This document shows positions 19,017-34,323 of a stretch of DNA of 64,000 nt, piece after piece (the stretch's first letter is position 1; each line of letters starts with the position of its first letter). The translations under genes and the position numbers were made by a program. The notes below the pieces were generated by a model. That model did no database searches, was not told the origin of the DNA, and saw only the letters and a program-made list of their open reading frames with translations. The stretch is from an uncultured Candidatus Saccharibacteria bacterium (GTDB lineage: Bacteria; Patescibacteriota; Minisyncoccia; Phycocordibacterales; Zambryskibacteraceae), in the NCBI GenBank assembly GCA_964383705.1, contig CAYLHJ010000003.1, positions 361 to 64,360 on the forward strand. The letters run 5' to 3'.

Positions 19017-19041
19017 TTGTCCGGCTGTTCTTTTTATATTT
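19002..19041. terminator. Intrinsic terminator CAGCCGGAC-gattaatt-GTCCGGCTG followed by TTCTTTTTATATTT; shared by the convergent mini-cistron C and the large ATPase gene
   Basis: A 9-bp stem followed by a T-run, with A/T-rich sequence on both sides. Confidence 0.65.
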
Positions 19042-21805
19042 AAATGGCATTAGGCGTAACTGTCCTATATTTCTCAAGTATTTCCTTTTCAACTTCCGCC
19101 CTGTCTCGACCGTATCTCATATATGAGCGTTCTTTAAGCGAATCTACATTATCATTATTCCTCTCAGGCGGAGGCATGCATTCAATATTAAACGGCTTTA
19201 CCGGTTTACCATGAACAAGCATTTTCAAATAGGCGTTTTTATTCTCAACATTAATTAATTGTTGAGAATTAAATACTGGCTCAAATTGTTTTGCTAGATA
19301 TTCAGCATCATCAGAACCGACACGAAAACACGCTATCGTTCCAACATTACCAAAAACAGCATTTTTTATATTTTCATCCAACTGGCCGATAAATTGATGA
19401 GCAATAGAAAGCGAGAGTTTGTATTTTCTAGCTTCGGAAAGAATTGTCCCGATAGACGGCGTTGTAATGTTTTGAAACTCATCAATATAAAGATAAAAGG
19501 GCGGAAGATTGGCATGAGTAGAATCCACCCTGGAAAGAGCTGCCATTAAAATTTTACCGACAAGAATAAGCCCAATTAGATTAGCATTAATATCGCCGAG
19601 TCTTCCTTTCGCCAGGTTAACCAAGAGAATTTTCTTATTATCCATAATATCTCGGAAATCAAAGGAAGAATGCTCTTGGGCGATAATCGGGCGCATAATC
19701 TCATTTGAAAGAAAGACATCAAACTTACTTGTTATGTAAGGCACTATATTTGCGAGCGCCCCTTCTCCGCCCGCTTTCTCCGCAATCTCGCGCCAAAATT
19801 GAGAAACCACCGGATTATTACATCTGGAAAGTTTCATTTGACGAAACTCTTTATTTGATAAAACTCGAGAAACATCAAGAAGTGTTCCACCACTATCAGG
19901 GTCTTCTATAACAAGCATGGTTGCATTCCTAAAGTATTGTTCGAACATTGGCCCCATAGATTCTGGCACCGCCCCATAAAGTTTTTGAAAAATATTAAAT
20001 AGCTCATTTACCACAAAGGTTTTTTGCTCTGGAAATTGCCTGTCATACTCAAGCATATTTAAAGCCATGGGCCTATCGACATTCCCTGGGTCAAAATAAA
20101 TCACATCATCAACCCTCTCCGGCGGGATATTGGCCAAGATATCCAAAATATCAGAGCCGTGTGGGTCAATCATACAAACCCCATCACCATTGCGAATATC
20201 TTGAATAATCATATTTTTTAGCAATGTTGATTTTCCTGTCCCCGTCTGCCCAATAGTATAAAAATGTCTGAGTCTGTCCTCCGCGGTTAGATATACTTTA
20301 GTTAGAGTGTTGCGATAACTATTAATACCAATAAGAGTTCCTTCTTGTGGCAAATCAAGAGGTGCTGGAGCATCCCCCACCCTATTAGTTTTTAATTGAG
20401 AAACACCGTGAAGACCTTCCCTATGAAAATGGATTAAGGAAGTCAATTCTGAGAGATTCAAAGGCAAACTTTCTTCTTTCACAAAAGAACGAAAAGCAAA
20501 ATTACGAAATAAAGATTTTAATTTTCCGCCCCTTGGACGAACGAACTTCAGACTATTACCTTGAGGATTATCAAACTGATTAAAAGCCGATTCCAAATGA
20601 GACAATATAGTCTCCGCCCGATCTTCATCAGGCGCCGAGGTAATAAGTCTGATTGCCACATTTACAATTGGCTTGGCAATTTTTGTTTGAATGCGCTCAA
20701 CCTCGGCCGAATCAAATGTCGGTCTTAAAATTTCGTTTTCTGGCTCTTTTTTCTTCTGGGAGAAAAATATTTCTTTAAAAATTTTGCCAACTTCACCTGC
20801 CACTCCTCCTTCAGAACCGAGAGCGTCTTTAAGCGGAACGCCCTTTTGAATTTTTTCTAGTGCGTTTGAATATTTTTTATGATAATACTCCCCCGCTGGA
20901 GAGAAGAGTATCTGGAGACACGCACCTTCGCTATCTCGATCAATCTTAGAAAAGCTATTTAAGATGACATTTAAAGGATCGTGGTCAAATGCCTCATATG
21001 TTTTAATGGGGAAAATTGGATTATTGCGAGATGTTGCGACAGAACCCATAGAAAAACCCTCCGGATTAAAAATGTTGTGGTCATCGGCTTGTTGACTAAT
21101 GCGTGCATTGTGAAAAATGGAAAGAATTTGTTTCTCAAATAAATCCTTCTTTGAATCCGGCACAGAAACATAAAATACAAATTCATCACTCCCATTGCTA
21201 TTGGCAATCTCTAAAACAAAATGATTTTCGCCAGGAGTATTTTGCGGGGAGATAGAAAGCATCCCTGCATAGAATTGCTCCATACCTGAAAGTAATTGCT
21301 TTAATACTTGCCCCTTTTCATCTCTTTCTGTTTCTGGCAATACAACTTCATAAAGAGTCATTTGAAGCGCCTTGGAAAGTGGTGCCCTTGGAGCTAGGCC
21401 TTTTATAGGGAAACCTCGCTTTATGTATTGAACTAAAAATCGATGAAAATCATCTTCTAAATGGCTATCGCCCATATTTTCTATTACGGAAATAGTATTT
21501 TTTATTCCCTTAGTGTTGAGTATTAAAAGAAGCTCCTCAATCTTCTTATCATGAGACTCCGGCCTCAAATTTGAAACGAGAGAGTGGAGATTTTCTTGGT
21601 TTAATCTAAATTGAGAATCAAGAACATCTTGCGGTAAAGTGTTGCCATACCGAGACAGTTTTTCTTTTATAATATTTTCTCTGTGTGGCTCAATGCCTTC
21701 GCGCCTTAATTCTCTCTCATGACGAAGTATTTCTGACTGCAAAAAAGCCTTTTCTTCCTGAGGCGATTTGAATTTAGATTCTAAAGAGAACTGTTTGTGC
21801 TCCAT
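19040..21805 (-). CDS. Large soluble P-loop NTPase, VirD4/TraG/TraD-like (type IV coupling-protein-like) or HerA-FtsK superfamily, with a roughly 450-aa N-terminal domain of unknown function
   Basis: 921 aa. Walker A TIGQTGTGKSTLL is followed by MIDPHGSDI and YFDPGN motifs. A Walker B-like segment is present. The C-terminal segment HQFIGQLDENIKNAVFGNVGTIACFRVGSDDAEYLAKQF resembles the TraG/TraD C-terminal (TraM-recognition) domain. No N-terminal TM helices. Confidence 0.6.
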   Translation of the reverse strand: MEHKQFSLESKFKSPQEEKAFLQSEILRHERELRREGIEPHRENIIKEKLSRYGNTLPQDVLDSQFRLNQENLHSLVSNLRPESHDKKIEELLLILNTKGIKNTISVIENMGDSHLEDDFHRFLVQYIKRGFPIKGLAPRAPLSKALQMTLYEVVLPETERDEKGQVLKQLLSGMEQFYAGMLSISPQNTPGENHFVLEIANSNGSDEFVFYVSVPDSKKDLFEKQILSIFHNARISQQADDHNIFNPEGFSMGSVATSRNNPIFPIKTYEAFDHDPLNVILNSFSKIDRDSEGACLQILFSPAGEYYHKKYSNALEKIQKGVPLKDALGSEGGVAGEVGKIFKEIFFSQKKKEPENEILRPTFDSAEVERIQTKIAKPIVNVAIRLITSAPDEDRAETILSHLESAFNQFDNPQGNSLKFVRPRGGKLKSLFRNFAFRSFVKEESLPLNLSELTSLIHFHREGLHGVSQLKTNRVGDAPAPLDLPQEGTLIGINSYRNTLTKVYLTAEDRLRHFYTIGQTGTGKSTLLKNMIIQDIRNGDGVCMIDPHGSDILDILANIPPERVDDVIYFDPGNVDRPMALNMLEYDRQFPEQKTFVVNELFNIFQKLYGAVPESMGPMFEQYFRNATMLVIEDPDSGGTLLDVSRVLSNKEFRQMKLSRCNNPVVSQFWREIAEKAGGEGALANIVPYITSKFDVFLSNEIMRPIIAQEHSSFDFRDIMDNKKILLVNLAKGRLGDINANLIGLILVGKILMAALSRVDSTHANLPPFYLYIDEFQNITTPSIGTILSEARKYKLSLSIAHQFIGQLDENIKNAVFGNVGTIACFRVGSDDAEYLAKQFEPVFNSQQLINVENKNAYLKMLVHGKPVKPFNIECMPPPERNNDNVDSLKERSYMRYGRDRAEVEKEILEKYRTVTPNAI

Positions 21806-22193: not shown

Positions 22194-22925
22194 TTATTGT
22201 TTAATTCTCACCACAGACCCCGTAGTAGCGTCTACTTCTACTCTTACATTATCAGTAAATCTTACGCTCCACACAACTTTACCTTCCTCCAAAGAAAGCT
22301 CTAGTTTGGCAATGGTTCCCGTATGCGCACCAAGTGCTATCGTTCTCGCTTTATCAGCAGAAATTGTGGCCACAAAGCCGGCAGGAACATTTGAATTCCT
22401 CTCGACTTTGTTTATAAGCTCAATCTTTTTGTCTTCAACTTTTTGAGTCCAAACCTCACCTCGTGACCAATTGCGTAATACAGTAGCGTCGATAGTCAAA
22501 GATTTATCAAGGTCAATTTGTCCTCGTGCGCCTACATAATCACCCACCTTGAAGTTCCCCGGAAATGATCCATTAGGAATTACTTCCGTATCGGAGTAAA
22601 CATTTACTTTCCATGATCCACCCCAGCTCTTCACTGTAATAGAACCAGTGCTTGATGCTGTGGAAGTTGAAACAGATTCGATTTTTCCACGAATAAGAGC
22701 CTTTCCCTTAGGACCAACTTCAAGAATGATTGGCTGGTTATTTCCTCTTCGAACAAGCTCATCTTCTATTCTTTGAATTTTTTTCTTCGCTTGCTCTTCT
22801 ATCTTTTCAATCTTTTTTTCTGATTTGGAACTACCTGAATTTGACTCCGCAAAGACGGCGGATGAAATTCCAAGTACAGTAAACAAGGCTAACATTATTG
22901 CGATATTCCTCTTAATTTTTTGCAT
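22194..22925 (-). CDS. Secreted hypothetical protein (signal peptide, coiled coil, beta-rich C-terminal domain)
   Basis: 243 aa. N-terminal signal peptide MQKIKRNIAIMLALFTVLGISSAVFA. No recognised catalytic motif. Confidence 0.45.
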   Translation of the reverse strand: MQKIKRNIAIMLALFTVLGISSAVFAESNSGSSKSEKKIEKIEEQAKKKIQRIEDELVRRGNNQPIILEVGPKGKALIRGKIESVSTSTASSTGSITVKSWGGSWKVNVYSDTEVIPNGSFPGNFKVGDYVGARGQIDLDKSLTIDATVLRNWSRGEVWTQKVEDKKIELINKVERNSNVPAGFVATISADKARTIALGAHTGTIAKLELSLEEGKVVWSVRFTDNVRVEVDATTGSVVRIKQ

Positions 22926-23030: not shown

Positions 23031-24806
23031 CTATGAATGAGATATATCCTTTATCTCATTTGCAATCGCCTCTTCCGCCTCTCCAAGCTCATTATCAAAT
23101 TGCTCTAAGAAAGATATTTCCTCCTTAGTTAATTTTCTTTTTAGAGACTTAAGACGAGTAATGTGTGTAGCAATATCTCTTCGAAGAAGACGGAAAGATT
23201 TCTCTAAAATTTTTTCTGCTTCTCTGCTCTCTCGCTTAAATTTTCGTAATACACGATTTGTTCGATTCCAAGCATATACACCACCTCCAATAAATACCGC
23301 AAGTAAAATTCCAATGAGAATAATCGCCGATAAGTAATCAAGGACTATATTAATGAGGTCAGTTAAAAATTTTGATTTTGCAATAATTGTCAACGGCTCG
23401 GTTTCATCACTTTGTGCACCACGACCATCAGTTACACGAGCGGTAAATACATATATTCCTGGGGAAAGACGTTTTGTTGCCACAACTGCCCAATCACCGG
23501 AACTATTACTCCTAGTGTGCTCTTCAAAAATAACTTCATCTCTTTCTTTAAATAAAATGGTTATATCTGAATCTGGATAAGTCGTTCCGCGGATTTTAAC
23601 AATATCTCCAGACTCTATTTCTTCTTGATAAGAGGTTATGATTGGCTTATCAATAGCCTGAATAGTAAAATTCTCTGATTCGCTTCGTGTGTTTCCTGCT
23701 TCATCAATAGCTGTGATAGTAACTATATGATTTCCCGGATATTGTTTTGGTAACGGATATGGATTTGAAGTTGCTGTGGGTGCAACACGCTCCGGCCCAC
23801 CATTCCCAATCTTTACATCGTAGGTACGTACCCCCGATATATTGTCTGTTGTGTTAAAAAGAATAACTGGTTGTGGCTCCAATCCGGTTTTTCCGTGAGG
23901 AAAAGAAATTAAAAATGGATCTGGTGGCGTTGTATCGATATTTACACGATAACGGGCAATATTACCCCAACCACTATTACTAGTAAGTATTTGAAGTGAA
24001 AAATAATATACACCATCAGGAAGCTGATCAATCTTCTTTGATGATATTGGTGGCGAATAACGCACCGATGGCAGAGCGGTTGATGAAACCCCAATTAGAG
24101 TTTTAACCTCAATAGCATCAGGCGGAAGTGTCCATGAAAATTCGGGAGCATTGTTCGAATACCATTTTGCTTGGTCTGGGTGTGTTGGTGATGTAATTGT
24201 TGGTGCATTAAAGCCATTTTCAATACTTGAAACAGGAATAATATCTGGAACTTCCGCATTGTCGCTTTGTATCGAGAATGTAGCGATACCAAGATCATCA
24301 AGAATATTGGTTCCCGCCCCGTCATTTGCCAATACCGAACCAGAAGAAAATTTTACATTGGCAACCCCGGCAGATTTCGCTCTAAACGTAACATTTATAA
24401 TAGTGCCCTGACTTCCAGTATATCCGGGGTTAAGGGCGATACCCTCAAAATTAACAGTCCCTTGTATATTTGAAAACGTTGGTTCTTGGACCCACAAATT
24501 CATTACAGAATTGTTCTTAGAAACACCCACAACTTCAAGCAAGCTCGGTGAAAAAGAAATAACCCCCGAGGCGGCATTTATCGCCTTATCAGGACTTGAA
24601 ACATAGGCAGAGACAGAAAACGTACTGCCAACCGCCCTTGTAATAATAGAAGGAGAAAATCCGAGATTTGCAGCATAAGAAATTACTGGTGCGAAAAACA
24701 ACACACCAAAGACAGAGAATAATAAAAAAGTTTTTAAATGTTCCTTCACTGTTTTTTTAAAAATACATAAAACACGCCAAACAGGATACTTATAAGTATA
24801 AGCCAA
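23031..24806 (-). CDS. Cohesin-domain surface protein with Ig/FN3-like repeats and a C-terminal TM anchor; N-terminus uncertain (overlaps the upstream gene by about 60 nt)
   Basis: Signal peptide, then a domain (FSPSIITRAVGSTFSVSAYVSSPDKAINAASGVISFSPSLLEVVGVS...GTIINVTFRAKSAGVANVKFS) matching the cohesin pattern. A TM helix lies near the C-terminus, followed by a charged cytoplasmic coiled-coil tail. Confidence 0.55.
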   Translation of the reverse strand: MAYTYKYPVWRVLCIFKKTVKEHLKTFLLFSVFGVLFFAPVISYAANLGFSPSIITRAVGSTFSVSAYVSSPDKAINAASGVISFSPSLLEVVGVSKNNSVMNLWVQEPTFSNIQGTVNFEGIALNPGYTGSQGTIINVTFRAKSAGVANVKFSSGSVLANDGAGTNILDDLGIATFSIQSDNAEVPDIIPVSSIENGFNAPTITSPTHPDQAKWYSNNAPEFSWTLPPDAIEVKTLIGVSSTALPSVRYSPPISSKKIDQLPDGVYYFSLQILTSNSGWGNIARYRVNIDTTPPDPFLISFPHGKTGLEPQPVILFNTTDNISGVRTYDVKIGNGGPERVAPTATSNPYPLPKQYPGNHIVTITAIDEAGNTRSESENFTIQAIDKPIITSYQEEIESGDIVKIRGTTYPDSDITILFKERDEVIFEEHTRSNSSGDWAVVATKRLSPGIYVFTARVTDGRGAQSDETEPLTIIAKSKFLTDLINIVLDYLSAIILIGILLAVFIGGGVYAWNRTNRVLRKFKRESREAEKILEKSFRLLRRDIATHITRLKSLKRKLTKEEISFLEQFDNELGEAEEAIANEIKDISHS

Positions 24807-25618
24807 TAAAAGAGGTATTCATACCATAAAAGTGGATGGGTGGGGGCAATCTCTACGACTTGCATATTGTGCGCATTATCTACAGCTCGTACAAAAATGT
24901 AACTTCTCAATTCTTGATCCGAAAGAACATAAGGACTCTCAACAACTCTCCACGAAGTGAGAAATGAAAGAGGTTTGAATAGATATTCTTTTACTTCATA
25001 GTGAGAAATACCCGAACCCTTATCTTGAGTCGAAAAAACAACAAACAAATTATCCTCATACAAAGAGTTACTATGCGAAATTATCGGAGTAAAATTCTCT
25101 GGCGGTTCCGAGTCTTCAATCACATTTCTTCGGGCATTACTATCTCCTGCCTTGACCTGTAATACCGTATTTCGAAGATCAAGGGCTATTTCTGTACCTG
25201 ATCCATCATTTTGAAGTGCCTTTGCTTCTGCAATTGAAATTGAGGCGACGCCTTCTTGCTTTGCCTTAAAGACAATAGAGAATATTAAGTTATTCACACC
25301 GCTAAATCCGCCTGGCGTGATGCCTGAAAATACTGAGGTACCAGCAGATTCGGTATTAGGTTTTTCAATCCAGAAATTTATGGAAGAGTTGCCATCACGA
25401 ATCTCTCGCATTTCAAGCATCATATCTGGAAAAAGAATTCGTCCCGAAATGGCATTTACTGACTCGTCACTGTTCGCAATGACATCAACGGTAAATTCCT
25501 CTCCAACACTCACATCTACCTTACTTGAATAAAGTAATAGTTCAGATGCATGCACACTGGGTGTAAAAAAGACCCAGAGCGTAAATACAGAAAATATTTT
25601 AGGTATTGAGCTATACAT
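24746..25618 (-). CDS. Cohesin-domain surface protein with a C-terminal TM anchor (start taken at the internal Met that begins the signal peptide)
   Basis: Signal peptide MYSSIPKIFSVFTLWVFFTPSVHA, then SKVDVSVGEEFTVDVIANSDESVNAISGRILFPDMML...LIFSIVFKAKQEGVASISI, which is cohesin-like. A C-terminal TM helix is present. Confidence 0.55.
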   Translation of the reverse strand: MYSSIPKIFSVFTLWVFFTPSVHASELLLYSSKVDVSVGEEFTVDVIANSDESVNAISGRILFPDMMLEMREIRDGNSSINFWIEKPNTESAGTSVFSGITPGGFSGVNNLIFSIVFKAKQEGVASISIAEAKALQNDGSGTEIALDLRNTVLQVKAGDSNARRNVIEDSEPPENFTPIISHSNSLYEDNLFVVFSTQDKGSGISHYEVKEYLFKPLSFLTSWRVVESPYVLSDQELRSYIFVRAVDNAHNMQVVEIAPTHPLLWYEYLFYWLILISILFGVFYVFLKKQ

Positions 25619-25619
25619 A

Positions 25620-26663
25620 TTATCCAGTCCAATTAAACGCCATAATGCTAAAATCAACCAAATCAACTTTACCGTCCGAATTCAGGTCGCTTGAGGTGGG
25701 AGGATTTGCTCGCTTATACCAATATGCCACAACTGAAAAATCAACTAGATTCACACGCCTGTCGTTATTCACATCTCCTTTTGATGGGGATTTTATAGGA
25801 ATGTCGGCAGTAACATTTTTTGTACCGACGACAAAACCAAGCGTTTTACCAAACGCGGTTATCTCCCCGTTCAAAGCCGATTTTGACTTTGTTTGATGTT
25901 GCCCCATTTCAAGAACTGATGTGTCAAAATTCAAAAGATACGCGCCTGTTGCGTCAGCAATTTTCTTTAGAAAAAATTCTTCTTCTGAATTTACACTAAC
26001 TGTTATCTCAGAAGAAGGCGCGCTTTGGCCGAAAATAACAAGATTATCTCCACGTCTTACTTCACTTTTGTCAACTGCAATAGTTGGAGCAATAAAAATG
26101 TTACCGACCTTGGTTGTTACACCCGATGTGACACTAATAGGAAAAGTTAGAAGCGAAGAACGGATACCCTTATTATCCTCAGAATAAACACTAAAAATAT
26201 AATTACCACCAGAAAGACCTGATATGGTCATTTGAAAATTGGCGTTCGCATCGGCAATGGTTGTTGCTGCAACCTGAGCGTCCTTAAGAAGGGTTATTGT
26301 GCTCCGAGGATAGGCTTTCCCAGTAAATACAACATTGGTTATAGGTATAGAGGGGCTACTTGCACCACCGCCGCCACCTCCCCCGCCACCTCCACCACCG
26401 GAAGATCCAGATGTGCACTGCGATGTGTTAAATGTACAAGCGGAGGTACAAGAAAGTGAACCCCCAGAAAAACCGAGTGACGAGCATGAAGATCCGCCAA
26501 GATTTGAGCCATCGCATTGCTCACCACTGCCAACCGCACTGTCGCCACAGCCGGGAACTGTGGCTGTTATTTCAACCGTTATCGCATTTACAACAAACGG
26601 CTCCAAAGTAAAGGCAAGGAGAGTGACGAGAGCAGATAGGAAAAATATATATTGACGATTCAT
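25620..26663 (-). CDS. Secreted dockerin-containing protein: N-terminal 7-Cys module, poly-Gly linker, Ig-like domains, C-terminal type-I-like dockerin
   Basis: Signal peptide present. The C-terminus contains two calcium-binding dockerin repeats, GDVNNDRRVNLVDFSVVAYWY and DLNSDGKVDLVDFSIMAFNW, matching the DxNxDGxVxxxD pattern. Confidence 0.6.
   Translation of the reverse strand: MNRQYIFFLSALVTLLAFTLEPFVVNAITVEITATVPGCGDSAVGSGEQCDGSNLGGSSCSSLGFSGGSLSCTSACTFNTSQCTSGSSGGGGGGGGGGGGASSPSIPITNVVFTGKAYPRSTITLLKDAQVAATTIADANANFQMTISGLSGGNYIFSVYSEDNKGIRSSLLTFPISVTSGVTTKVGNIFIAPTIAVDKSEVRRGDNLVIFGQSAPSSEITVSVNSEEEFFLKKIADATGAYLLNFDTSVLEMGQHQTKSKSALNGEITAFGKTLGFVVGTKNVTADIPIKSPSKGDVNNDRRVNLVDFSVVAYWYKRANPPTSSDLNSDGKVDLVDFSIMAFNWTG
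26365..26402. repeat. (GGN)12 trinucleotide run encoding Gly12 in the dockerin protein (antisense reads as poly-Pro)
   Basis: CCACCGCCGCCACCTCCCCCGCCACCTCCACCACCGG is visible in the sequence. It is an imperfect GGN repeat. Confidence 0.8.
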
Positions 26664-26666
26664 TCA

Positions 26667-27653
26667 TTATTTATCGCGCATTGTTTCCGCAATAATTCTA
26701 CGCTTTAGTCTGGCCACCCAAGCCTTAAAAACAAAACGTGCGAGTCCAAGAATCACAATAGTTATTGTTAAAAGTTGCCAAGGAACAACAAAAAAATTAT
26801 ATGATGCATTAGCATCTTGTGGAGACTCTCCCCATATTACTTGCATATGGGCCGTATACAAACCAAAATGAAAGTCTATTATTTGATTAAGTGCCATTTT
26901 AAAAAATCCCCGTTTTTCTTCTTCACCTTGTTTTGATCCCCATAACACCTCAAAACGCCTTGTACTATTTGGAAGTACACTCCCTTCGTTCTCGTTGGCA
27001 AGCAAGGTCGCAGATGTAAGTTGTAAGGTGTTTTTAATCTTTATCTCGCCGCGCGGAACAACCCTGTCTCCACCAGTATTATTGAAGCCATACTCAAATA
27101 AGATTGGAAGCACACTAAAAAAACGTTGGCCATTTAACGCACCAAAATCAACAAGCCCGGCCGACTCTTCAACCTCTCCTGACACTTTCAAAAGCATTAA
27201 AACGCCAATTTTACCTCCGATGGTAACTTCGCCTCCACCTGTACCCTGAGCAGGCTGGCTTCCGAAAAAAACAGCAGCAAAATAACCTCCAGCCTTCGCG
27301 TTTTCAGGAATTGATATTGTGTAAGGGACCTGTACCCTTTCACCAGGAGCAAGCACGACTTGAGGATCAGTTGAAACCCAAGTTGCAAGACCATTATTTG
27401 CGCCTATGAAATAAGGTGCGCCAGAATCACCTCGTGATTCAAAATTTTCATATGAAGCATAAAAAGTTTTAGTCTCATTTTGTTCGTTAAAGAGTTCGAT
27501 CTCTCCCCTCACTGTCTGTCCAGGATCGGCCGCTATCTCAATCTTTGCGGGAGAAACAGTAAGTGCATATGTGTTTGACACAATGCCTGTTGCAGTAATA
27601 AGTATGAATATGTAAAAAAATATTTTTCTCATGGGTGTTCGAGAGAATATCAC
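26667..27653 (-). CDS. Cell-surface protein with signal peptide, beta-rich ectodomain and a single C-terminal TM anchor; DUF916/DUF3324-like architecture as found in WxL loci
   Basis: 328 aa. The N-terminal segment LTVSPAKIEIAADPGQTVRGEIELFNEQNETKTFY is followed by a C-terminal TM helix and an RLKRR tail. Architecture and position match the DUF916/DUF3324 partner of WxL proteins. Assignment rests on architecture only. Confidence 0.4.
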   Translation of the reverse strand: MIFSRTPMRKIFFYIFILITATGIVSNTYALTVSPAKIEIAADPGQTVRGEIELFNEQNETKTFYASYENFESRGDSGAPYFIGANNGLATWVSTDPQVVLAPGERVQVPYTISIPENAKAGGYFAAVFFGSQPAQGTGGGEVTIGGKIGVLMLLKVSGEVEESAGLVDFGALNGQRFFSVLPILFEYGFNNTGGDRVVPRGEIKIKNTLQLTSATLLANENEGSVLPNSTRRFEVLWGSKQGEEEKRGFFKMALNQIIDFHFGLYTAHMQVIWGESPQDANASYNFFVVPWQLLTITIVILGLARFVFKAWVARLKRRIIAETMRDK

Positions 27654-27669
27654 ACCCCATACACCAATG

Positions 27670-28773
27670 CTAGAAGTTAGCAGTTGCTACATAGGTGAGG
27701 GTTGCGGTGTAAGCACCAGCCTCCGTCGAAGATGTGATATTCGCGAGATATCGTGCTGAGTATGTTGTGTTTGCAGAAGCGCTAGTTGCCGCTGCCACTT
27801 CATCAGGGAAAGCGGCAGTATCAAATGCAAAGCCCGCAGCCGCGTAGGGAGCAGAAACTGCGCCCGAACCACCAGAGGCTGTCATGCGTAAGCCAAATTG
27901 TTCGGTGCCCACCGAAGATGCAGTATTTGAGGAACCAATTGCAGATATAGTATTAGCACCAGAAGTAAGCGTTGCCCCATTCACCGTTACGGTGTAGCCG
28001 TTTGCTGCATTTGTGCCAACAACAAGTGTGTGTGCCTCCGCTTCGGTCGCAGAACCATTTGTATCACCAGAAGCAAAGAAATCGTCAGAGGCAGAGAGTG
28101 TACCAAACCCTATCGAGTTATCAGAGATAGTAAAGGTAAGTGATTCATCTACGGTTGCTGAAACAGACACCTGGTCATCGTTCAAAATGTTAATAACGAT
28201 ATCACCTGAATCTCCGAATGTTCCCGCAATTGCAATAGTATAGCTCGCTGCTGAGGCATGGTTAGTAATTTGTGTATCTCCAGTTGCTCCAGTTGTTGCG
28301 TTTGTACCAATCTGAACCTGAACACAGGCATCTGCGGCGATCGCGGCTGCACCAACACCGTCACTTGGAGCGGTAAGTGTAAGCACCTGGCCAGAAAGTG
28401 CTGCGCCCCAAGCGGTTGCTGAAGGTGAAGCGGCAAGTGTTTCTTCGTTAGAATAAGTTGGGGCGGTACAGTTTGACTGACTACCTGCGGAGTGAGCAAG
28501 ATCCACATCAGCAAAATCAAATGTGTTCGTAGTAAATCCTGATGGAAGCGTAATCGTGATGGTGTCCGACGACTGGTTAGCGCCCGTAGGAGATCGAAAA
28601 ACAATCGTATGATTTGAGGCCGTGCTTACTTTCTGACTCGACATTGTGTCTGATTTATTAAGAAGTGAAGCTGCGTATATGATATTAGGTGCTATACCCA
28701 AGAAGCAGGAGACTAGCGTAAACACAAGAAATAAGCTGGCGATAAAACGAAACCGTAAAAGGAGCTTGTGCAT
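27670..28773 (-). CDS. Secreted protein (367 aa) with a C-terminal WxL-like domain in which the two conserved Trp positions are Tyr; the 'small' member of the pair
   Basis: Signal peptide present. The C-terminal roughly 170 aa (LTFTISDNSIGFGTL...GYTVTVNG...EQFGLRMTASGG...YSARYLANITSSTEAGAYTATLTYVATANF) is shared at about 65% identity with the 906-aa neighbour. Confidence 0.5.
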   Translation of the reverse strand: MHKLLLRFRFIASLFLVFTLVSCFLGIAPNIIYAASLLNKSDTMSSQKVSTASNHTIVFRSPTGANQSSDTITITLPSGFTTNTFDFADVDLAHSAGSQSNCTAPTYSNEETLAASPSATAWGAALSGQVLTLTAPSDGVGAAAIAADACVQVQIGTNATTGATGDTQITNHASAASYTIAIAGTFGDSGDIVINILNDDQVSVSATVDESLTFTISDNSIGFGTLSASDDFFASGDTNGSATEAEAHTLVVGTNAANGYTVTVNGATLTSGANTISAIGSSNTASSVGTEQFGLRMTASGGSGAVSAPYAAAGFAFDTAAFPDEVAAATSASANTTYSARYLANITSSTEAGAYTATLTYVATANF

Positions 28774-28878
28774 AAATGTGCTGTTAGATTTTTTAAATTA
28801 CTCTTATTAAGACACGGCTATATACATGTTTAATTGTATCTAATTATTAAAATATTTGCATAGAACTTCTGTGGAGAA

Positions 28879-31599
28879 CTAAAAACCTGCAGTGATGACA
28901 TATGTAAGAGTTGCACTATAACTCCCCGCTTCGGTGGTCGCAGAAATATTTCCGAGGTAACGTACTGAATATGTTGTTGTAACATCATCTCCATCAACAT
29001 CAGATGCCACCTGGTCAGGAAAACTTCCGGTATCACACGCGAAACCACTTGCGGCATATGGAGCAGTTACGGAACCATTACCTCCAGATGCACTCATCCG
29101 CAAACCGAACTGCTCGCTACCCGCGCTTGAGGAGGTGTTTGTGCTACCAATCGCGGTAATAGTATTGGGACCAGATGTGAGTGTATTTCCATTTACCGTT
29201 ATGACATAGCCACTGGATGCATTTGTCGAAGCAGAAATAGTATGTGCCTCTACCTCCGTACCAGAACCACTTGTATCGCCCGTTGCATAACGCGCGGCAG
29301 AAGACAATAACGTGCCGAAACCAATTGAGTTGTCGGAGATTGAGAATGTTAATGTACCAGATGCGCCGCTAGCCGCAGTTATCACTTCGGGAACAACGGT
29401 ATATGTATCAAGCTGCGTGCCATCAGATTCAACTACGCGAAAACAATATGATGTGTTTGCGATCGCGCCGTTATCAATTAGCGCGAAGTCCCACTTGCTG
29501 TCTTGACCAGAGGGAACTGCCGCAACCGTATTGGTGAAGTTATTTGCTTCCTCATAATCTTGATTTACGATGGTGTGTCCACTATGTGTCGGATCGCTTG
29601 CGTTCGCGGTTAAATTATCTCCATCGGCTGGAGTCGCATTGTTATTGTAGGCAATAACCGTTGAGCCCGTAACGTCGGCATAACTTTCACCAGAAAAACT
29701 TGTGTCGCAGGTGCCACTTTTTTCGGCAAACTGTAATTTAAGATTTTGCGCACTCGCTGCAAGATTTGCGGTGCCAACATGCAAGAGCGTTCGGAGGCGA
29801 AATGCATCACCAGTTGAGGAAAGTGTTGCGGCAGTGTCTTGCGCGGCAAGTGCACTCCCCACATCAGTAGAATTTGCATTGCTAAAAAGACGGTAGGCCG
29901 CTTGTTCAAACGTAGGTGGCGTTTCTCGCACACGGATAAAAATACCAGGGCCACGAACATTGGTTACAGTGCCCGCCGCTGTCGCAATCATGGTGGGCGC
30001 CGCTGAGCTGGTACCAGAAGACACCGAAGAACGTACTGTGAAGCCACCTATGTCGTTACCAGTCGCACTGTCCGGCTCGTTGATTTCCGTTACAGTGCCA
30101 AACGTGACTCCCGTTTGCGTAAATGATTCCGATGAAAACTGTGCCGGCGTGGTAACGTCCGTTGGAATTACCATCGCTCCCAAGATATGATCACCTGTTG
30201 TAACACCTGGGTCAGCAGACATAGCGATAGAAACCGAAGTATCACCGGTCGCATCCGAACCGGTCGTTGCGGCTAAACTCCACACATCTGAGTCACTCGA
30301 AAGTCGATACATTTGCGCCCATGAGGCGTTGTTGGTAGTAAGTGAAAAACAATTCTCGCTTGCTTCTGTTCCAAGTGCAGTGCGGTAGAAAGAAAACACG
30401 TTGGTGTTGCCAGTATCAATGCCTAGCGTCGTACCATAACCACCTGCACCGACTAGAGAGCCGTTTGTAATTGCTGTCCAACCGGAGGGTGTCGTCACAG
30501 AACCGCTATTTGCGGTTGAGGGCTTCATACCTATAACAACGATTAGAATGTCATTTACTGCAACGGAGGCTGGGTGTGCTGGACATATTCCCGTACCAGT
30601 CGTTGTGGTTTGATACGCAAGAGTACCTGCCGCCTGGTATGTAATAGTCCCCGTCGCGCGTATTCTGATGAATATTCCAGGGCCACGAACATTGGTTACT
30701 GTACCTCCCGCAGTACCAGAGAATGTTGGGGCCGCGGAGGAAGTCCCGGAAGATACCGATGAGCGAACAACCACCCCTCCTATATCATTTCCCGTTGTAG
30801 AATCGGGTTCTGAAACTTCTGTAACAGTACCAAATGTGATGCCAGTTTGTGTCAAGGCCTCAGCAGAGAATTGCGATGGCGTCGAAACGTCAGTAGGAAT
30901 AACCATTGTCGCCAAAATATGGTCTCCACTTGCGACTCCTGGATCAGCTGACATTGCAATTGAAAGAGATGTATCACCAGTCACATCCGATCCAGTGGTA
31001 GCGGCCAGTGTCCAATCTTCAGTTGCATTAGTAAAACGGTATATTTGAGCCCAGGCAGCATTATTAGTCACAAGTCGCACCAGCACTGTGCCAGTTTCGT
31101 TTCCCTCCGCAATTTTATAATATGAAAATACATTAGTGTTGCCGGTGTCCGCACCAAGTGTAGTACTGTATCCGCCCGCGCCGACTAGAGAGCCGTTTGT
31201 AATTGCTGTCCAACCTTCGGGAGCCGCCCCGATTGAGCCGCTGTTCGCGGTCGAGGGCTTCATGCCTATAATCATCACAAGTAAATCACCGTTAGCAATT
31301 GAAGCTGGATAGCTTGGCGCGATGGTAACAACCCCACTGTTAGCCACAGCACTTGCAGATTGGTAGGTAATGGCTGCGTGTGCTTCTTGTATTCGGATCT
31401 TATCCGCCACCTTGCGAAGCGAACTAAAATTATCAACGACATTTGAATCGCGGGAAAGATGCCACGCCTTATCTACAATATTCTGCGACTGCGCATATGA
31501 ATCAAGAAGCGCAGATACGATCCAAAACGGCCCATTAGAGAATAATATACCAATTACAACAAGTATCGTTATAGAAATGTTACAAATCTTCCTCAGCAT
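28879..31599 (-). CDS. Large secreted protein (906 aa) with two roughly 240-aa internal tandem repeats and the same C-terminal WxL-like (Tyr-variant) domain
   Basis: Signal/TM N-terminus. Tandem repeats run from about aa 76-315 and 316-555. The C-terminal domain ...LTFSISDNSIGFGTL...GYVITVNG...EQFGLRMSASGG...YSVRYLGNISATTEAGSYSATLTYVITAGF is shared with the 367-aa neighbour. Confidence 0.55.
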   Translation of the reverse strand: MLRKICNISITILVVIGILFSNGPFWIVSALLDSYAQSQNIVDKAWHLSRDSNVVDNFSSLRKVADKIRIQEAHAAITYQSASAVANSGVVTIAPSYPASIANGDLLVMIIGMKPSTANSGSIGAAPEGWTAITNGSLVGAGGYSTTLGADTGNTNVFSYYKIAEGNETGTVLVRLVTNNAAWAQIYRFTNATEDWTLAATTGSDVTGDTSLSIAMSADPGVASGDHILATMVIPTDVSTPSQFSAEALTQTGITFGTVTEVSEPDSTTGNDIGGVVVRSSVSSGTSSAAPTFSGTAGGTVTNVRGPGIFIRIRATGTITYQAAGTLAYQTTTTGTGICPAHPASVAVNDILIVVIGMKPSTANSGSVTTPSGWTAITNGSLVGAGGYGTTLGIDTGNTNVFSFYRTALGTEASENCFSLTTNNASWAQMYRLSSDSDVWSLAATTGSDATGDTSVSIAMSADPGVTTGDHILGAMVIPTDVTTPAQFSSESFTQTGVTFGTVTEINEPDSATGNDIGGFTVRSSVSSGTSSAAPTMIATAAGTVTNVRGPGIFIRVRETPPTFEQAAYRLFSNANSTDVGSALAAQDTAATLSSTGDAFRLRTLLHVGTANLAASAQNLKLQFAEKSGTCDTSFSGESYADVTGSTVIAYNNNATPADGDNLTANASDPTHSGHTIVNQDYEEANNFTNTVAAVPSGQDSKWDFALIDNGAIANTSYCFRVVESDGTQLDTYTVVPEVITAASGASGTLTFSISDNSIGFGTLLSSAARYATGDTSGSGTEVEAHTISASTNASSGYVITVNGNTLTSGPNTITAIGSTNTSSSAGSEQFGLRMSASGGNGSVTAPYAASGFACDTGSFPDQVASDVDGDDVTTTYSVRYLGNISATTEAGSYSATLTYVITAGF
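29935..31374. repeat. Intragenic tandem duplication: two units of about 720 bp (roughly 75-80% identical by eye) inside the 906-aa surface-protein gene
   Basis: A near-identical block (ATGAAGCCCTCRACCGCRAAYAGCGG...GGTTGGACAGCAATTACAAACGGCTCTCTAGTCGG) recurs at minus-strand offsets about 31262 and about 30541. The duplicated antisense shadow ORFs 29960..30190 and 30668..31048 also reveal the repeat. Confidence 0.65.
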
Positions 31600-32530
31600 A
31601 GGTGCTTACATAGTTATATATGATATTTGAGATATCGCGCATCATATTTCGAGCATGCGATTCTTCTCCAGTTCTAACCATGACTGTTAGGACATATGGG
31701 CGACCGGTCGGATATACGATACCGGAATCCACATAAACATTTTTATCTGTTGCAATACCAATTTTGTGCGAAAATTCTGTTCCTTCAGGCAGTCCGCCCT
31801 CAATAAAGTTCTTAAAAGCTGACTCCGTCATAAATGTCAATAATTTTTGCGAATATTCAGGAGAAAGATAGGATGACGTATACAACATTCTAAAAATTGC
31901 GGAATACCGTTTGGCGCTAATGCGACCATCGGTATCAAAAAACCCCTTGAGACCAATGTGTTCATATACCGCTTCCACCTCCTCAGTTTCCAGATTACGA
32001 AGCAAGATAAAGTGCGCTGTATTATCTGATTCAACCAGTGATCGCCGCACGAGATCTTCTATAGTATGCGTAGAATTGATCGGCTCTTGGTATAACGTAC
32101 CGAACAGTTCATCTCTGTCTCCGGCAAGTAAGACTAATTCATTGCCCCATTTCCATTCCCCACGCTCTATTTTTTTAGCGACAGCAACCGCAACCGGCAC
32201 CTTGAGAAGAGAGGCTGGATAAAATTCTGCATCTTTGTTAATCGAAATATTCGCGCCAGTCGGCAAATATTCAAAATACATTGATATATCGGGGTTGTTT
32301 TCATACAAAGCATTGAGTTTGTTACGAAGAAGTTGAAAGTTGACAATGAGATTTTCCTGCTCGACAAAACGACGTGAGGGATCAACAAATGAGAACAATG
32401 TATCGGATAACCGCGCATCGGTTTGATGTTCTGCCTGCCACCACGTGAATATATTAGTGATGAGCAACACCATTACCACTCCCGAAAGGAAACGTATCGA
32501 AATATTATTTTTGCCTTGGACATATTTCAT
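31580..32530 (-). CDS. Class A beta-lactamase-fold serine hydrolase-like protein, membrane anchored
   Basis: N-terminal TM helix. SxxK (ASLLK) and SDN (VESDNTA) motifs are present. The position where KTG is expected reads KIG, so true beta-lactamase activity is uncertain. Confidence 0.45.
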   Translation of the reverse strand: MKYVQGKNNISIRFLSGVVMVLLITNIFTWWQAEHQTDARLSDTLFSFVDPSRRFVEQENLIVNFQLLRNKLNALYENNPDISMYFEYLPTGANISINKDAEFYPASLLKVPVAVAVAKKIERGEWKWGNELVLLAGDRDELFGTLYQEPINSTHTIEDLVRRSLVESDNTAHFILLRNLETEEVEAVYEHIGLKGFFDTDGRISAKRYSAIFRMLYTSSYLSPEYSQKLLTFMTESAFKNFIEGGLPEGTEFSHKIGIATDKNVYVDSGIVYPTGRPYVLTVMVRTGEESHARNMMRDISNIIYNYVSTYAEEDL

Positions 32531-32538
32531 AGTTTCCT

Positions 32539-34110
32539 TTATTTCACATTAACTATGTTTATCTGGCAGATTACCGATGAATCCTCCTTGCCTTTTTGGG
32601 TAAAGACAATTGGAACAGTGAAGTTCCCAGTAAGTGCACCCTCCTCGTTTCTTATACGAAGCGACACGATGTCATCGTCAAAGTCAGGCTCATACACATA
32701 GTCATCATTTGCTGAGAAGACCATATTAACACCATCAGGAAGACTTCCGATTTCAAGTTGATAGTTTTCGTCGAGAGATTTTTGCAACATAACTTTTGTC
32801 GAAAAAGAACGCCGACCAAAGACATCAATACTGAATGGCGACGCCTCGCAGCGATGCACAGCATTCGGATCGATGATTATTTCTTTTGTGAAATTCCTTA
32901 CTGAAAGTCGCGGCGGGAGAGGTACCGGTTCGATAATGGGTTGATATGTTTCCTCGATGGGCAGTTCATCTACGATCACTTCTTCCAAAGCTTCCTGTTC
33001 TTCGGTTGGGATAAGTTCCCCTATTGTTTCTCCCAAGACTTCGCCGATTGCACTTGCAACATTCGCAAGTTGCGATGTGTCGCTTTGATTCGTGTACTCG
33101 TATTCCGTCTCGATCCACACGGAATCAAGATAGATAATTGGCGCGACGCCGTCTACCACAGGTACACTTTGAATGCCAATTTGTATTTTGGCAATATTTT
33201 CCCAGTCCGACACTTCTTCGATGGGTATCTCAAAATACTTACTTCCAAATTCGTCTTTCTCCACAAACCCAAGACTTTTCCATTCAACCCCATCAAGCGT
33301 GTAGAGTACTTCCACCAAGCCGTACGCGGAGATGGAGGTGGGAGTTGCGATATCCGGAGTCGTGGTGGCAGTCTCTTCAATCGCATCCGTTGTCGACGAC
33401 ACAGTATCCAAAATCTCTTGTGCATACACGACAGTCGCAAAAAAATTTAAAATAGACGCGGATGGTTCTTGTGGAGCAGGCTCAGGTGATGGCTCTGATG
33501 TCGTCTCTTGTGGCTGTGGCGTTGATTCTTCAACGGCTGAAACTGCTTCCGATTCAGGTTCAGAAACCGATTCGGTTGGTGCCAGAGTTTCTGATTCTCC
33601 TGATTCCGCCGCTGCTGGTCCCAGTTCTGCATTTGACTTTTCAGCTGATTGATCAAACGCACCCGTTGCATTTGCATCCTCGTTCTTGATTTGTATGTTT
33701 CCTTCTATTTGCGCAGCAGAATCAGTGGTGGCTGCAGTATCTTCGACCTGAAGCACTTCGGTGTTCAATTTCGGATACTCGACCGCCCAAGAGAATTTAA
33801 CTAGGATATTCTTCGGTACCGTATTTTCCAAAATATCTCCGGCAAATCCGCCGCAATATATTTGGGCGTGCGCACTGGCGTCGAGTCGAGCTGAATTAAC
33901 TTGCGTAAATATCGGCGCCCCACCCAATTCATTGGCTTCGGGAACACCGGAAGCGAGATGCGTGTTCTCCCATCCCCCAAGACACATCGATGCATACAAA
34001 TTGTAAATGCTTGCACGTGCGGTTAATGTATATAGTGACACGCAAAAAATAATAACAATGGCCACTACCGCGGAACATACCAAAAATAATCTTGGAAGTG
34101 TAGTACGCAT
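32539..34110 (-). CDS. Membrane-anchored secreted protein with an acidic Ser/Glu/Pro/Thr-rich low-complexity linker; hypothetical
   Basis: 523 aa. N-terminal TM/signal. The low-complexity segment ESGESETLAPTESVSEPESEAVSAVEESTPQPQETTSEPSPEPAPQEP is prominent. No catalytic motif recognised. Confidence 0.4.
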   Translation of the reverse strand: MRTTLPRLFLVCSAVVAIVIIFCVSLYTLTARASIYNLYASMCLGGWENTHLASGVPEANELGGAPIFTQVNSARLDASAHAQIYCGGFAGDILENTVPKNILVKFSWAVEYPKLNTEVLQVEDTAATTDSAAQIEGNIQIKNEDANATGAFDQSAEKSNAELGPAAAESGESETLAPTESVSEPESEAVSAVEESTPQPQETTSEPSPEPAPQEPSASILNFFATVVYAQEILDTVSSTTDAIEETATTTPDIATPTSISAYGLVEVLYTLDGVEWKSLGFVEKDEFGSKYFEIPIEEVSDWENIAKIQIGIQSVPVVDGVAPIIYLDSVWIETEYEYTNQSDTSQLANVASAIGEVLGETIGELIPTEEQEALEEVIVDELPIEETYQPIIEPVPLPPRLSVRNFTKEIIIDPNAVHRCEASPFSIDVFGRRSFSTKVMLQKSLDENYQLEIGSLPDGVNMVFSANDDYVYEPDFDDDIVSLRIRNEEGALTGNFTVPIVFTQKGKEDSSVICQINIVNVK

Positions 34111-34208: not shown

Positions 34209-34280
34209 GTGACCCTACGGGGAATCGAACCCCGCTTTGAGCCTTGAGAAGGCTCCGTCCTAGCCGATAGACGATAGGGC
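34209..34280 (-). tRNA. tRNA-Glu (anticodon CUC), 72 nt, CCA not encoded
   Basis: Manual fold: acceptor GGCCCTA/TAGGGTC (7 bp, one G-U), D-arm GTCT/GGAC, anticodon stem GAGCC/GGCTC with loop TTCTCAA, a 4-nt variable loop, T-arm CGGGG-TTCGATT-CCCCG, and discriminator A. The D-arm resembles E. coli tRNA-Glu. Confidence 0.85.
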
Positions 34281-34323
34281 CGTTGAAACAAAAGAATACC
34301 GAATTTAGTGGCTATAATCAAGG

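Follow-up and report, generated by a model that had tools for sequence, protein, structure and literature searches.

The window analysed here is a stretch of 64,000 nucleotides deposited as an uncultured Candidatus Saccharibacteria bacterium and placed by GTDB in the Zambryskibacteraceae (assembly GCA_964383705.1, contig CAYLHJ010000003.1). It contains a trio of genes, named here D, B and A, which encode one secreted dockerin protein and two membrane-anchored cohesin proteins. A sequence-only reading had located these three genes between positions 23031 and 26663, and their coordinates were confirmed on the minus strand. The trio was found to be the 3′ end of a six-gene operon, F2-F1-W-D-B-A, whose first two genes encode pilins, and as judged from the sequences the cohesin–dockerin pair of this donor-strand-exchange pilus operon probably serves as a tether to the membrane. 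The features of the operon are the following.

23031..24806, minus strand: gene A as its maximal open reading frame (591 amino acids from a TTG at 24806), the long membrane-anchored cohesin protein.
24252..24674, minus strand: cohesin domain of A, residues ~45–185 in the 591-amino-acid numbering (Pfam PF00963 and hhalign to the B profile).
23034..23369, minus strand: transmembrane helix (residues 480–514) and charged cytoplasmic tail (residues 515–591) of A (hydropathy and orthologue conservation).
24746..25618, minus strand: gene B, 290 amino acids with an ATG at 25618, the short membrane-anchored cohesin protein.
25620..26663, minus strand: gene D, 347 amino acids, the secreted dockerin protein.
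25623..25781, minus strand: type-I-like dockerin of D, residues 295–347 (Dockerin_1, two calcium-binding F-hand repeats).
26556..26582, minus strand: mature N-terminal strand of D, ITVEITATV, residues 28–36, a putative pilin-like donor strand.
26364..26555, minus strand: six-Cys knob (residues 37–84) and Gly12 linker (residues 89–100) of D (Cys positions and homologue alignment).
26667..27653, minus strand: gene W, 328 amino acids, a membrane-anchored protein with two beta domains and a probable Pam-type chaperone analogue.
27670..28773, minus strand: gene F1, 367 amino acids, a Pam-type shaft pilin with the linker DDQVSVSATV at 28141..28182 and the Pam C-terminal domain at 27673..28080.
28879..31599, minus strand: gene F2, 906 amino acids, a Pam-type pilin or adhesin, large and variable, whose Pam C-terminal domain lies at 28882..29289.

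Transcription in this region runs through a gene for a 523-amino-acid protein, a beta-lactamase-like gene, F2, F1, W, D, B and A, in that order. From F1 to A, the genes either overlap or are separated by intergenic gaps of 1–16 nucleotides. A single base lies between the TAA of D and the ATG of B, and the TGA of B is overlapped by an in-frame GTG of A at 24749 (GTGA). Because the alignment of A orthologues starts near this GTG and because of its overlap with the stop codon of B, the true start of A is probably GTG 24749, giving a protein of 572 amino acids, and not the TTG at 24806 that had been taken as the start. Signal peptides were recognised on all six proteins of the operon by hydropathy and from the model of B, and by the same means a C-terminal transmembrane helix was found in A, B and W and none in D, F1 and F2.

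The A protein is composed of a signal peptide, a cohesin, three Ig/FN3-like domains, a transmembrane helix and a cytoplasmic coiled-coil tail. Residues 56–162 matched the Pfam Cohesin family (PF00963) with 31.6 bits against a cut-off of 24.1, and a match to Big_13 was obtained with 34.2 bits. Among 40 orthologues of A, the Cohesin match was present in 22 and the Big_13 match in 38, and the mean column identity of the A cohesin was 69% across lineages. The Big_13 match and the hydropathy profile bore out the FN3/Ig-like repeats and the charged cytoplasmic tail that had been described earlier for this protein. The tail is ~77 amino acids long and is conserved in the orthologue alignment with the motif KR.LT.EE, and it showed weak coiled-coil-type matches in PDB to the ATP synthase subunit b (E ~0.07).

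The B protein contains a signal peptide, a divergent cohesin (residues ~24–157), an FN3/Ig-like domain (~170–257) and a C-terminal transmembrane helix (263–289). When B alone was compared with the Pfam Cohesin family, it scored 13.3–13.5 bits, which is under the cut-off of 24.1; the match was obtained in 18 of its 41 relatives with a best E of 1.3e-7, and the profile of the B family retrieved only Ruminococcus flavefaciens cohesins from PDB. The AlphaFold2 (AF2) model of B, with a predicted local distance difference test score (pLDDT) of 86.2, has nine main strands within residues 25–156. A Foldseek search of this model against PDB returned cohesins as all of the top 50 matches, with template modelling scores (TM-scores) up to 0.81 and root-mean-square deviations (rmsd) of 2.6–3.5. 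The best match was the Clostridium perfringens cohesin plus FN3 tandem 2w1n (E 5.5e-11), and the model was superposed on 2vo8 with a TM-score of 0.81 and rmsd of 2.7 and on the Archaeoglobus fulgidus non-cellulosomal cohesin 2xdh with a TM-score of 0.78.

The cohesin profiles of A and B were aligned by hhalign over 135 columns with a probability of 99.7% and an E of 5e-27; therefore, the two cohesins are paralogues. Single-sequence PDB searches with A and B gave nothing useful for the cohesins, and since a profile restricted to the A cohesin also had no sequence match in PDB, the fold of A rests on its Pfam match and on the hhalign alignment with B. The cohesin fold is thus seen in the predicted structure of B, which is superposable on the solved cohesins, and for A it is reached through the alignment to B. 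The presence of two membrane-anchored cohesins, as had been suggested earlier, was established by the Pfam score of A, by the family profile and AF2/Foldseek results of B, and by the A–B alignment. Both A and B are type-I membrane proteins with their N-terminal cohesins facing outward, that of A being carried by three Ig/FN3-like domains, which form a long stalk, and that of B by a single FN3-like domain.

The D protein contains a signal peptide, an N-terminal beta-strand, a 6-Cys knob, the Gly12 linker, two Ig-like domains and a dockerin. It matched Dockerin_1 (PF00404) over residues 295–341 with 29.7 bits against a cut-off of 22.9, and Big_6 with 29.3 bits, and both dockerin repeats of this secreted protein were found exactly as they had been quoted before. 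In dockerin repeats the calcium ligands are Asp or Asn at loop positions 1, 3, 5, 9 and 12, and both repeats of D conform to this pattern, with D297, N299, D301, N305 and D308 in the first and D326, N328, D330, D334 and D337 in the second. Eight of these ten ligands (D297, N299, D301, N305, D308, N328, D330 and D337) were invariant in 27 homologues and 92–100% conserved in a set of 71 sequences made up of 70 related loci and this window, in which D326 and D334 were conserved to ~65%. The D-family profile found only type I dockerins in PDB (2y3n_B with E 0.001, and 5nrm_B), and a single-sequence search with D gave marginal dockerin matches only. In a motif scan, the two repeats of D were the sole dockerin-like loops of the window. 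The sequence-only reading had allowed that the cohesin-like domains might have another fold or that the Asp/Asn pattern might be missing; with the top 50 matches of the B model being cohesins and the ligands conserved, its observation of a cohesin–cohesin–dockerin trio therefore stands. The Pfam check that it had proposed gave scores above the cut-off for A and D; B itself scored below it, and matches were obtained among its relatives.

The N-terminal module of D had been described with seven Cys residues followed by a Gly12 linker. The run of 12 Gly was found, but six Cys residues were counted (39, 50, 60, 72, 76 and 83), all of which are invariant in the alignment of D homologues. For comparison of this region, 81 non-redundant related loci were used. 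All the D variants with a complete N-terminus have a variable head, a poly-Gly run of 8–15 residues, the Ig-Ig pair and the dockerin. The commonest head is the six-Cys knob (63 of the 81 loci), and the remaining ones are either another type of small Cys module or beta-rich domains of larger size. Two unusual genes were observed in this comparison. One lies between W and D (L014:9032-9991) and is a hybrid with a D-type Cys knob and Ig region in which a W-type C-terminal domain replaces the dockerin. The other (L054:6311-10732) encodes a giant D of 1473 amino acids with many extra Ig/CarboxypepD_reg-like repeats before the poly-Gly, Ig-Ig and dockerin end.

The order D-B-A on one strand was observed in 72 of the 81 loci, and most of the others were cut by contig ends. 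Each locus has one dockerin gene and usually two, occasionally three, cohesin genes. The co-occurrence of D, B and A supports a cognate cohesin–dockerin pair. When sequence divergence was measured, the mean pairwise distance was 0.39 for the dockerin, 0.46 for the cohesin of A and 0.64 for that of B, cohesin B diverging much faster than the dockerin or cohesin A. With the Ig domains of D controlled, the dockerin distances were correlated with those of cohesin A (partial r 0.36, Mantel p 0.0005) and of cohesin B (partial r 0.18, p 0.005), and the correlation was higher with A than with B in 98.6% of the bootstraps. The motifs NA..G, (F/L)W, GI.PGG and L.NDG.GT are invariant in both cohesins, and these residues appear to lie on strands 3, 5, 6 and 8 as predicted, which in type I cohesins form the face that binds the dockerin. 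These findings point to the dockerin of D as a ligand that would bind the cohesin of A and probably that of B as well. The two dockerin repeats are nearly symmetric, and a dual binding mode is therefore conceivable, as is a transfer from the short B to A with its long stalk.

The cohesin–dockerin chemistry is best known from cellulosomes, and the cohesins of solved structure that come closest belong to cellulosomes or are associated with glycoside hydrolases, which would fit a miniature cellulosome or another glycan-degrading complex that recruits dockerin-bearing enzymes encoded elsewhere. The absence of an associated carbohydrate-active enzyme (CAZyme), which the sequence-only reading had pointed out, was confirmed for the window and extended to all 81 loci. 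Furthermore, there is a single cohesin per protein and no carbohydrate-binding module (CBM), every locus has exactly one dockerin gene, which lacks an enzyme domain, and the operon partners are pilins. Because CAZymes and CBMs are absent, each protein has a single cohesin and each locus a single dockerin without an enzyme, we regard a role like that of a cellulosome as essentially excluded and highly improbable.

The distribution of the module was found to be wide. The protein collection contained more than 2346 homologues of D at 60–80% identity and more than 300 relatives of B, and every named source of these was a lineage of Patescibacteria. The identity of D remains 60–80% across class-level lineages. 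In a genome scan with one genome per species, D relatives were present in at least 559 species-level genomes, including that of the co-cultured Ca. Microsyncoccus archaeolyticus. The lineage-named D records were mostly Patescibacteria (Kaiserbacteria, Nomurabacteria, Wolfebacteria, Zambryskibacteria, Campbellbacteria, Jorgensenbacteria, Portnoybacteria, Colwellbacteria, Liptonbacteria, Komeilibacteria, Magasanikbacteria, Veblenbacteria and Torokbacteria), and a few record titles named Gammaproteobacteria or Methylomirabilis. Outside the cluster, no flanking family was common to more than 10 of the 81 loci, and the module is therefore autonomous. A phage or virus origin was considered and rejected, as zero relatives were found in IMG/VR or GenBank phages. 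In one locus (L062:6871-9471), B and A are joined in frame into a protein of 866 amino acids, in which the transmembrane helix of B is followed by the signal peptide of A in a topologically consistent manner; the fusion may be genuine or may stem from an error of assembly or sequencing.

The genes preceding D were counted in the 48 loci with at least 4 kb upstream of D, using iterative profile searches on the fetched loci. A W-like gene was present directly upstream of D in 46 of these, and recognisable pilin-like genes in 36, of which 28 have the Pam C-terminal domain and eight belong to a second, divergent type of small pilin. The constant part is W-D-B-A, and the preceding pilin pair varies in class and size, the first pilin gene (equivalent of F2) ranging from 308 to 2095 amino acids between loci. 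The small pilins of the second class (L008:1709-2245, L017:3425-3952 and L011:8725-9249) are ~175 amino acids long, with an N-terminal T/V-rich strand, a single Ig-like domain and a W-T-L motif, and they were not recognised by the NCBIfam Pam models. A large variable protein having the same C-terminal domain is encoded upstream of each of them, and these pairs are followed by a short (~200 amino acids) W-like protein and D-B-A.

The assignment of F1 and F2 came from the NCBIfam model NF058581 (CPR_Pam_pilin_C, Pam pilus system pilin subunit; CPR, Candidate Phyla Radiation), which has a cut-off of 55 bits and covers the C-terminal ~140 residues of both proteins; F1 scored 89.4 bits and F2 79.9 bits. 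Neither protein had a match in Pfam, and at least 1381 homologues of F1 were found. The Pam pilus is known from filaments of a Saccharibacterium, Ca. Mycosynbacter amalyticus, that were examined by cryo-electron microscopy (Troman et al, bioRxiv 2026, 10.64898/2026.03.03.709456). In its pilins, an N-terminal beta-sandwich is followed by a linker, which the next subunit receives as a donated strand, and by a C-terminal acceptor domain of the truncated-Ig type, and the donor strands are reported to be among the most conserved segments (Troman et al, 2026). The AF2 model of F1 (pLDDT 86.4) has ~ten strands in residues 38–197, an unpaired linker at 198–211 and a C-terminal beta domain, and the linker DDQV.V.ATV is nearly invariant and among the most conserved segments of the F1 family. 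This predicted two-domain layout of an N-terminal beta-sandwich, a conserved linker and a C-terminal domain matches the description of Pam pilins. The fold neighbours of F1 were adhesins and pilins of the generic two-Ig kind (ClfA, Cna, SdrG, CFA/I, RbmA and BslA), and a Pam structure was not among the matches of this search, probably as none has been released. The F1 and F2 proteins are Sec-exported pilins with a Pam pilin C-terminal domain. In F2, two tandem repeats of ~250 amino acids precede this domain, with the motifs ...IGMKPSTANSGS...P.GWTAITNGSLVGAGGY...

The Pam operon encodes membrane-anchored FimC/PapD-like chaperones, PamC and PamD (Troman et al, 2026). The W protein has a signal peptide, two beta domains, a transmembrane helix at its C-terminus and a basic tail, an architecture as described for these two, whose place in the operon it also occupies, and it is a probable Pam-type chaperone analogue. 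Its orthologues showed weak matches to WxLIP_PGBD/DUF916 (14 of 35, best E 1.6e-4), and no relationship between W and the B family was detected by hhalign. Another Pam protein, PamR, consists of FnIII-FnIII with an extra N-terminal strand and a transmembrane helix at its C-terminus and was proposed as the fibre end and membrane tie (Troman et al, 2026). No single protein of this operon has the PamR-type architecture, and the PamT equivalog model gave 44.5 and 30.7 bits, below its cut-off of 240.

The constant company of A and B with the chaperone-like W raised the possibility that the two cohesin folds, together with W, serve as an usher- or chaperone-like platform for assembly or for spanning the wall, the dockerin being a calcium-stabilised module or serving another partner. 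The conserved cytoplasmic tail of A, which suggests coupling to intracellular partners, would agree with such a role, and many non-cellulosomal dockerins reportedly have no known partner. On the other hand, one dockerin stands beside two cohesins in essentially every locus, the residues invariant in A and B map to what is predicted to be the dockerin-binding face (strands 3, 5, 6 and 8), and dockerin and cohesin divergence are correlated. An assembly platform is an improbable explanation of the trio.

A likeness between the dockerin protein and the pilins was seen at the N-terminus of D. In the common form of D, cleavage at the signal-peptidase site after VNA leaves a mature N-terminus, ITVEITATV, that is similar to QVSVSATV, the donor strand of the pilin encoded nearby. 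The 12-residue mature N-terminus of D was compared with the whole adjacent pilin, and composition-preserving shuffles were used as control. The best 9-mer match fell on the linker just before the pilin C-terminal domain in 18 of 31 loci, as compared to 15% of the shuffles (binomial P ~6e-8). In addition, the strand motif of D tracks the pilin class, as seen in the D and pilin pairs TVEITATV and QVSVSATV, SVNISASI and AVNVNASV, and TGLVQATIT and TGVVNATVT. The head of D in four of the loci (L003, L055, L065 and L071) shows 31–45% identity over 150–180 residues to the N-terminal domains of Pam-type pilins from other loci; by eye, the likeness extends into the linker (STEVSATP versus SNEQTVTVP), and the acceptor C-terminal domain is swapped for poly-Gly, Ig-Ig and dockerin. 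From its domain composition, this type of D would be in effect a pilin able to donate a strand and unable to accept one.

Taking these results together, the trio was interpreted as that end of a Pam-type operon, for a pilus built by donor-strand exchange, which provides the anchor to the cell, and we give the whole chain of this argument an even chance of being correct. In the proposed mechanism, the pilins would be exported by Sec, held by W after export, and polymerised by donor-strand exchange. The D protein would join last, its N-terminal (or linker) strand inserting in the acceptor domain of the last pilin, and since an acceptor domain is lacking in D, the fibre would end there and its growth would stop. 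The dockerin of D would then bind the cohesin of A and/or B, by which D would be fixed non-covalently to the membrane, and the fibre would be tied to the membrane via the flexible poly-Gly/Ig-Ig leash and a wall-spanning Ig stalk. The conserved cytoplasmic coiled coil of A may couple the anchor to an intracellular component. In this arrangement, D with A/B would be a two-polypeptide functional equivalent of PamR. The more specific proposal, that the dockerin is the plug locking a Pam-type fibre onto the two transmembrane cohesin proteins and that D is the terminator subunit, is advanced tentatively and at slightly less than even confidence.

Several observations weigh against this interpretation. 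The pilin was unrecognised upstream of D in 12 of the 48 loci, though same-strand genes there show the same size pattern. The W protein had no match to Pfam PapD or in PDB, and hhalign found no relationship of W with E. coli FimC (probability 0.2%). The strands compared between D and the pilins are short, T/V/S/A-rich and compositionally alike; the P of ~6e-8 is optimistic because the loci are phylogenetically related; and within the main pilin class the locus-specific covariation of the D strand with the pilin linker was not significant (P 0.19). The Pam operon of Mycosynbacter has no reported cohesin or dockerin (Troman et al, 2026). Furthermore, the heads of D, the 6-Cys knob as well as the other modules, look like functional binding modules, which fits plain surface display.

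Such display, the main rival reading, would mean that A and B hold D at the cell surface, with its head acting as a short-range adhesin or ligand-binding module, and that the pilus genes are co-regulated neighbours only. The identification of the cohesins and the dockerin and the strict synteny of D, B and A agree with it, as do the modularity of the heads, which are exchanged between lineages and in some cases shared with pilins as expected of binding modules, the poly-Gly leash that suits the presentation of a head, and the loci in which a pilin was unrecognised. However, the 60–80% identity of D across class-level lineages is unusual for a host-specific adhesin, W-D-B-A is kept although the pilin pairs beside it belong to two or three divergent classes at the least, the N-terminus of D mimics the pilin donor strand, and the D variants that are pilins minus the acceptor domain are hard to account for by display. 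Stand-alone display is considered possible, though rather unlikely. The sequence-only reading had seen the trio as a mini-scaffold displaying an adhesin. Its domain calls hold, but the free-standing reading is incomplete because the trio ends a conserved pilin operon and D bears a putative pilin-like donor strand; the pilin/chaperone-like operon context had been missed. A pilus-linked tether is better supported than display on a free-standing mini-scaffold.

The remaining genes of the cluster and its upstream boundary are the following.

31580..32530, minus strand: class-A beta-lactamase-like gene (Pfam Beta-lactamase2, E 1.5e-38).
32539..34110, minus strand: gene for a 523-amino-acid secreted protein with family unassigned, upstream of the beta-lactamase-like gene.
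34209..34281: tRNA-Glu, the upstream boundary of the cluster.

The beta-lactamase-like gene was found in 10 and the gene of the 523-amino-acid protein in eight of the 81 related loci, and both are accessory at most. The beta-lactamase-like protein (31580..32530) is membrane-anchored, and one may speculate that it remodels the cell wall for passage of the pilus. The G+C content of the pilus part (26000..34000) is 0.44–0.47 as against 0.35–0.41 elsewhere in the window, which is probably due to the Ala/Gly/Thr-rich pilins. Directly downstream of A, a secreted PepSY and DUF5666 protein is encoded (22194..22925), homologues of which were not detected among the related loci. Further downstream of the cluster, a 921-amino-acid VirD4/TraG-like type IV coupling protein (19040..21805; T4SS-DNA_transf, TraG-D_C) was found, which accompanies the module in 1 of 81 loci and is thus not co-conserved with it. 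Housekeeping genes (MraW, penicillin-binding proteins, Mur ligase, MreB, DnaB and tRNA synthetases) make up the remainder of the window, which is therefore chromosomal, and the relatives of its proteins place it in the Patescibacteria, as Paceibacteria/Parcubacteria-like.

The domain calls by themselves are not new because NCBI labels these CPR proteins by domain, some relatives of this trio being already named 'cohesin domain-containing' or 'dockerin type I repeat-containing'. Non-cellulosomal pairs are known in C. perfringens and A. fulgidus. In the searchable literature, no description was found of the W-D-B-A module, its phylum-wide conservation or its link to Pam-type pilins. The Pam system has been reported mainly in Saccharimonadia and Microgenomatia, and the preprint mentions neither cohesin, dockerin nor Paceibacteria (Troman et al, 2026). 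The results obtained here extend the system to Paceibacteria, beyond the reported lineages, with a different base architecture. Of the branches of the CPR, that of the Paceibacteria/Parcubacteria is the largest and the least understood, and hardly any of its members have been cultured. W-D-B-A is a compact, phylum-conserved module, and D ranks with the group's most conserved secreted proteins. If the pair does tether a pilus, it would represent a previously undescribed anchoring principle conserved in hundreds of Paceibacteria species and one of the clearest non-cellulosomal roles of cohesin and dockerin. It would also offer a handle on the contact between CPR bacteria and their hosts, through attachment sensitive to calcium and to EDTA (ethylenediaminetetraacetic acid), recombinant domains and antibodies to D.

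The module was compared with known systems. As in the anchoring scaffoldins of the cellulosome (Clostridium thermocellum OlpA, OlpC and SdbA; 3ul4 and 4dh2), a single cohesin fixed to the envelope would capture a secreted protein by a dockerin with two calcium-binding F-hand repeats, and the model of B was superposed on the anchoring-scaffoldin cohesins with TM-scores of 0.69–0.72. In contrast to them, the anchor here is a transmembrane helix at the C-terminus and not SLH (S-layer homology) domains or sortase, the cargo is pilin-like or head-bearing and not a scaffoldin or enzyme, CBMs and CAZymes are absent, and the lineage is one of small-genome episymbionts. The C. perfringens GH84C cohesin-FN3 and toxin complexes (2w1n, 2vo8 and 2jh2) and A. 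fulgidus 2xdh include the best structural matches to B, 2w1n having the same cohesin plus FN3 tandem, and in these organisms too cohesin and dockerin assemble non-cellulolytic extracellular complexes. Those modules lie within secreted glycoside hydrolases or soluble proteins, whereas dedicated membrane proteins in a pilus operon, conserved class-wide, are found here. A dockerin-domain protein, SEML1_0315, is essential in the Saccharibacterium Southlakia (Wang et al, 2023, PMC10633639). Its identity with the present module was rejected, as it is encoded by a stand-alone gene of 927 amino acids with unrelated neighbours.

The WxL/DUF916 (Csc) clusters of Firmicutes resemble this operon in having a transmembrane-anchored DUF916-like protein beside paired secreted proteins that share a C-terminal domain, and W-T-L motifs occur in the small pilins of some loci. 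The likeness is a resemblance only, and WxL clusters have no cohesin–dockerin genes. An assignment of F1/F2 as WxL and W as DUF916 proteins was tried and was not confirmed, W giving at best 14.5 bits against a cut-off of 27.3, and F1, its orthologues and F2 having no WxL match. It is possible that the Firmicutes WxL/Csc clusters and the CPR Pam-type operons are distantly related chaperone-plus-surface-protein systems.

In the Pap system, the terminator of the PapH type is a final subunit that donates a strand and accepts none, by which it stops the growth of the fibre and anchors it. The D protein is similar in having a donor-like strand and no acceptor domain. Unlike in chaperone-usher pili, there is no usher and no outer membrane here. 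To our knowledge, anchoring by a protein–protein plug such as cohesin–dockerin has not been described for any pilus.

The operon was also compared with the Pam pilus system. In both systems, two-domain pilins with a conserved linker are found, F1 and F2 carrying the Pam C-terminal domain above its cut-off, and a protein with a signal peptide and a C-terminal transmembrane helix adjoins the pilins (W here, and PamC/PamD there). The proposed terminator in both combines an N-terminal strand with a membrane-anchored end. The difference lies in the anchor, which in Pam is one RbmA-like FnIII-FnIII-transmembrane protein and here would be split into D, with the strand and the dockerin, and the transmembrane cohesins A and B.

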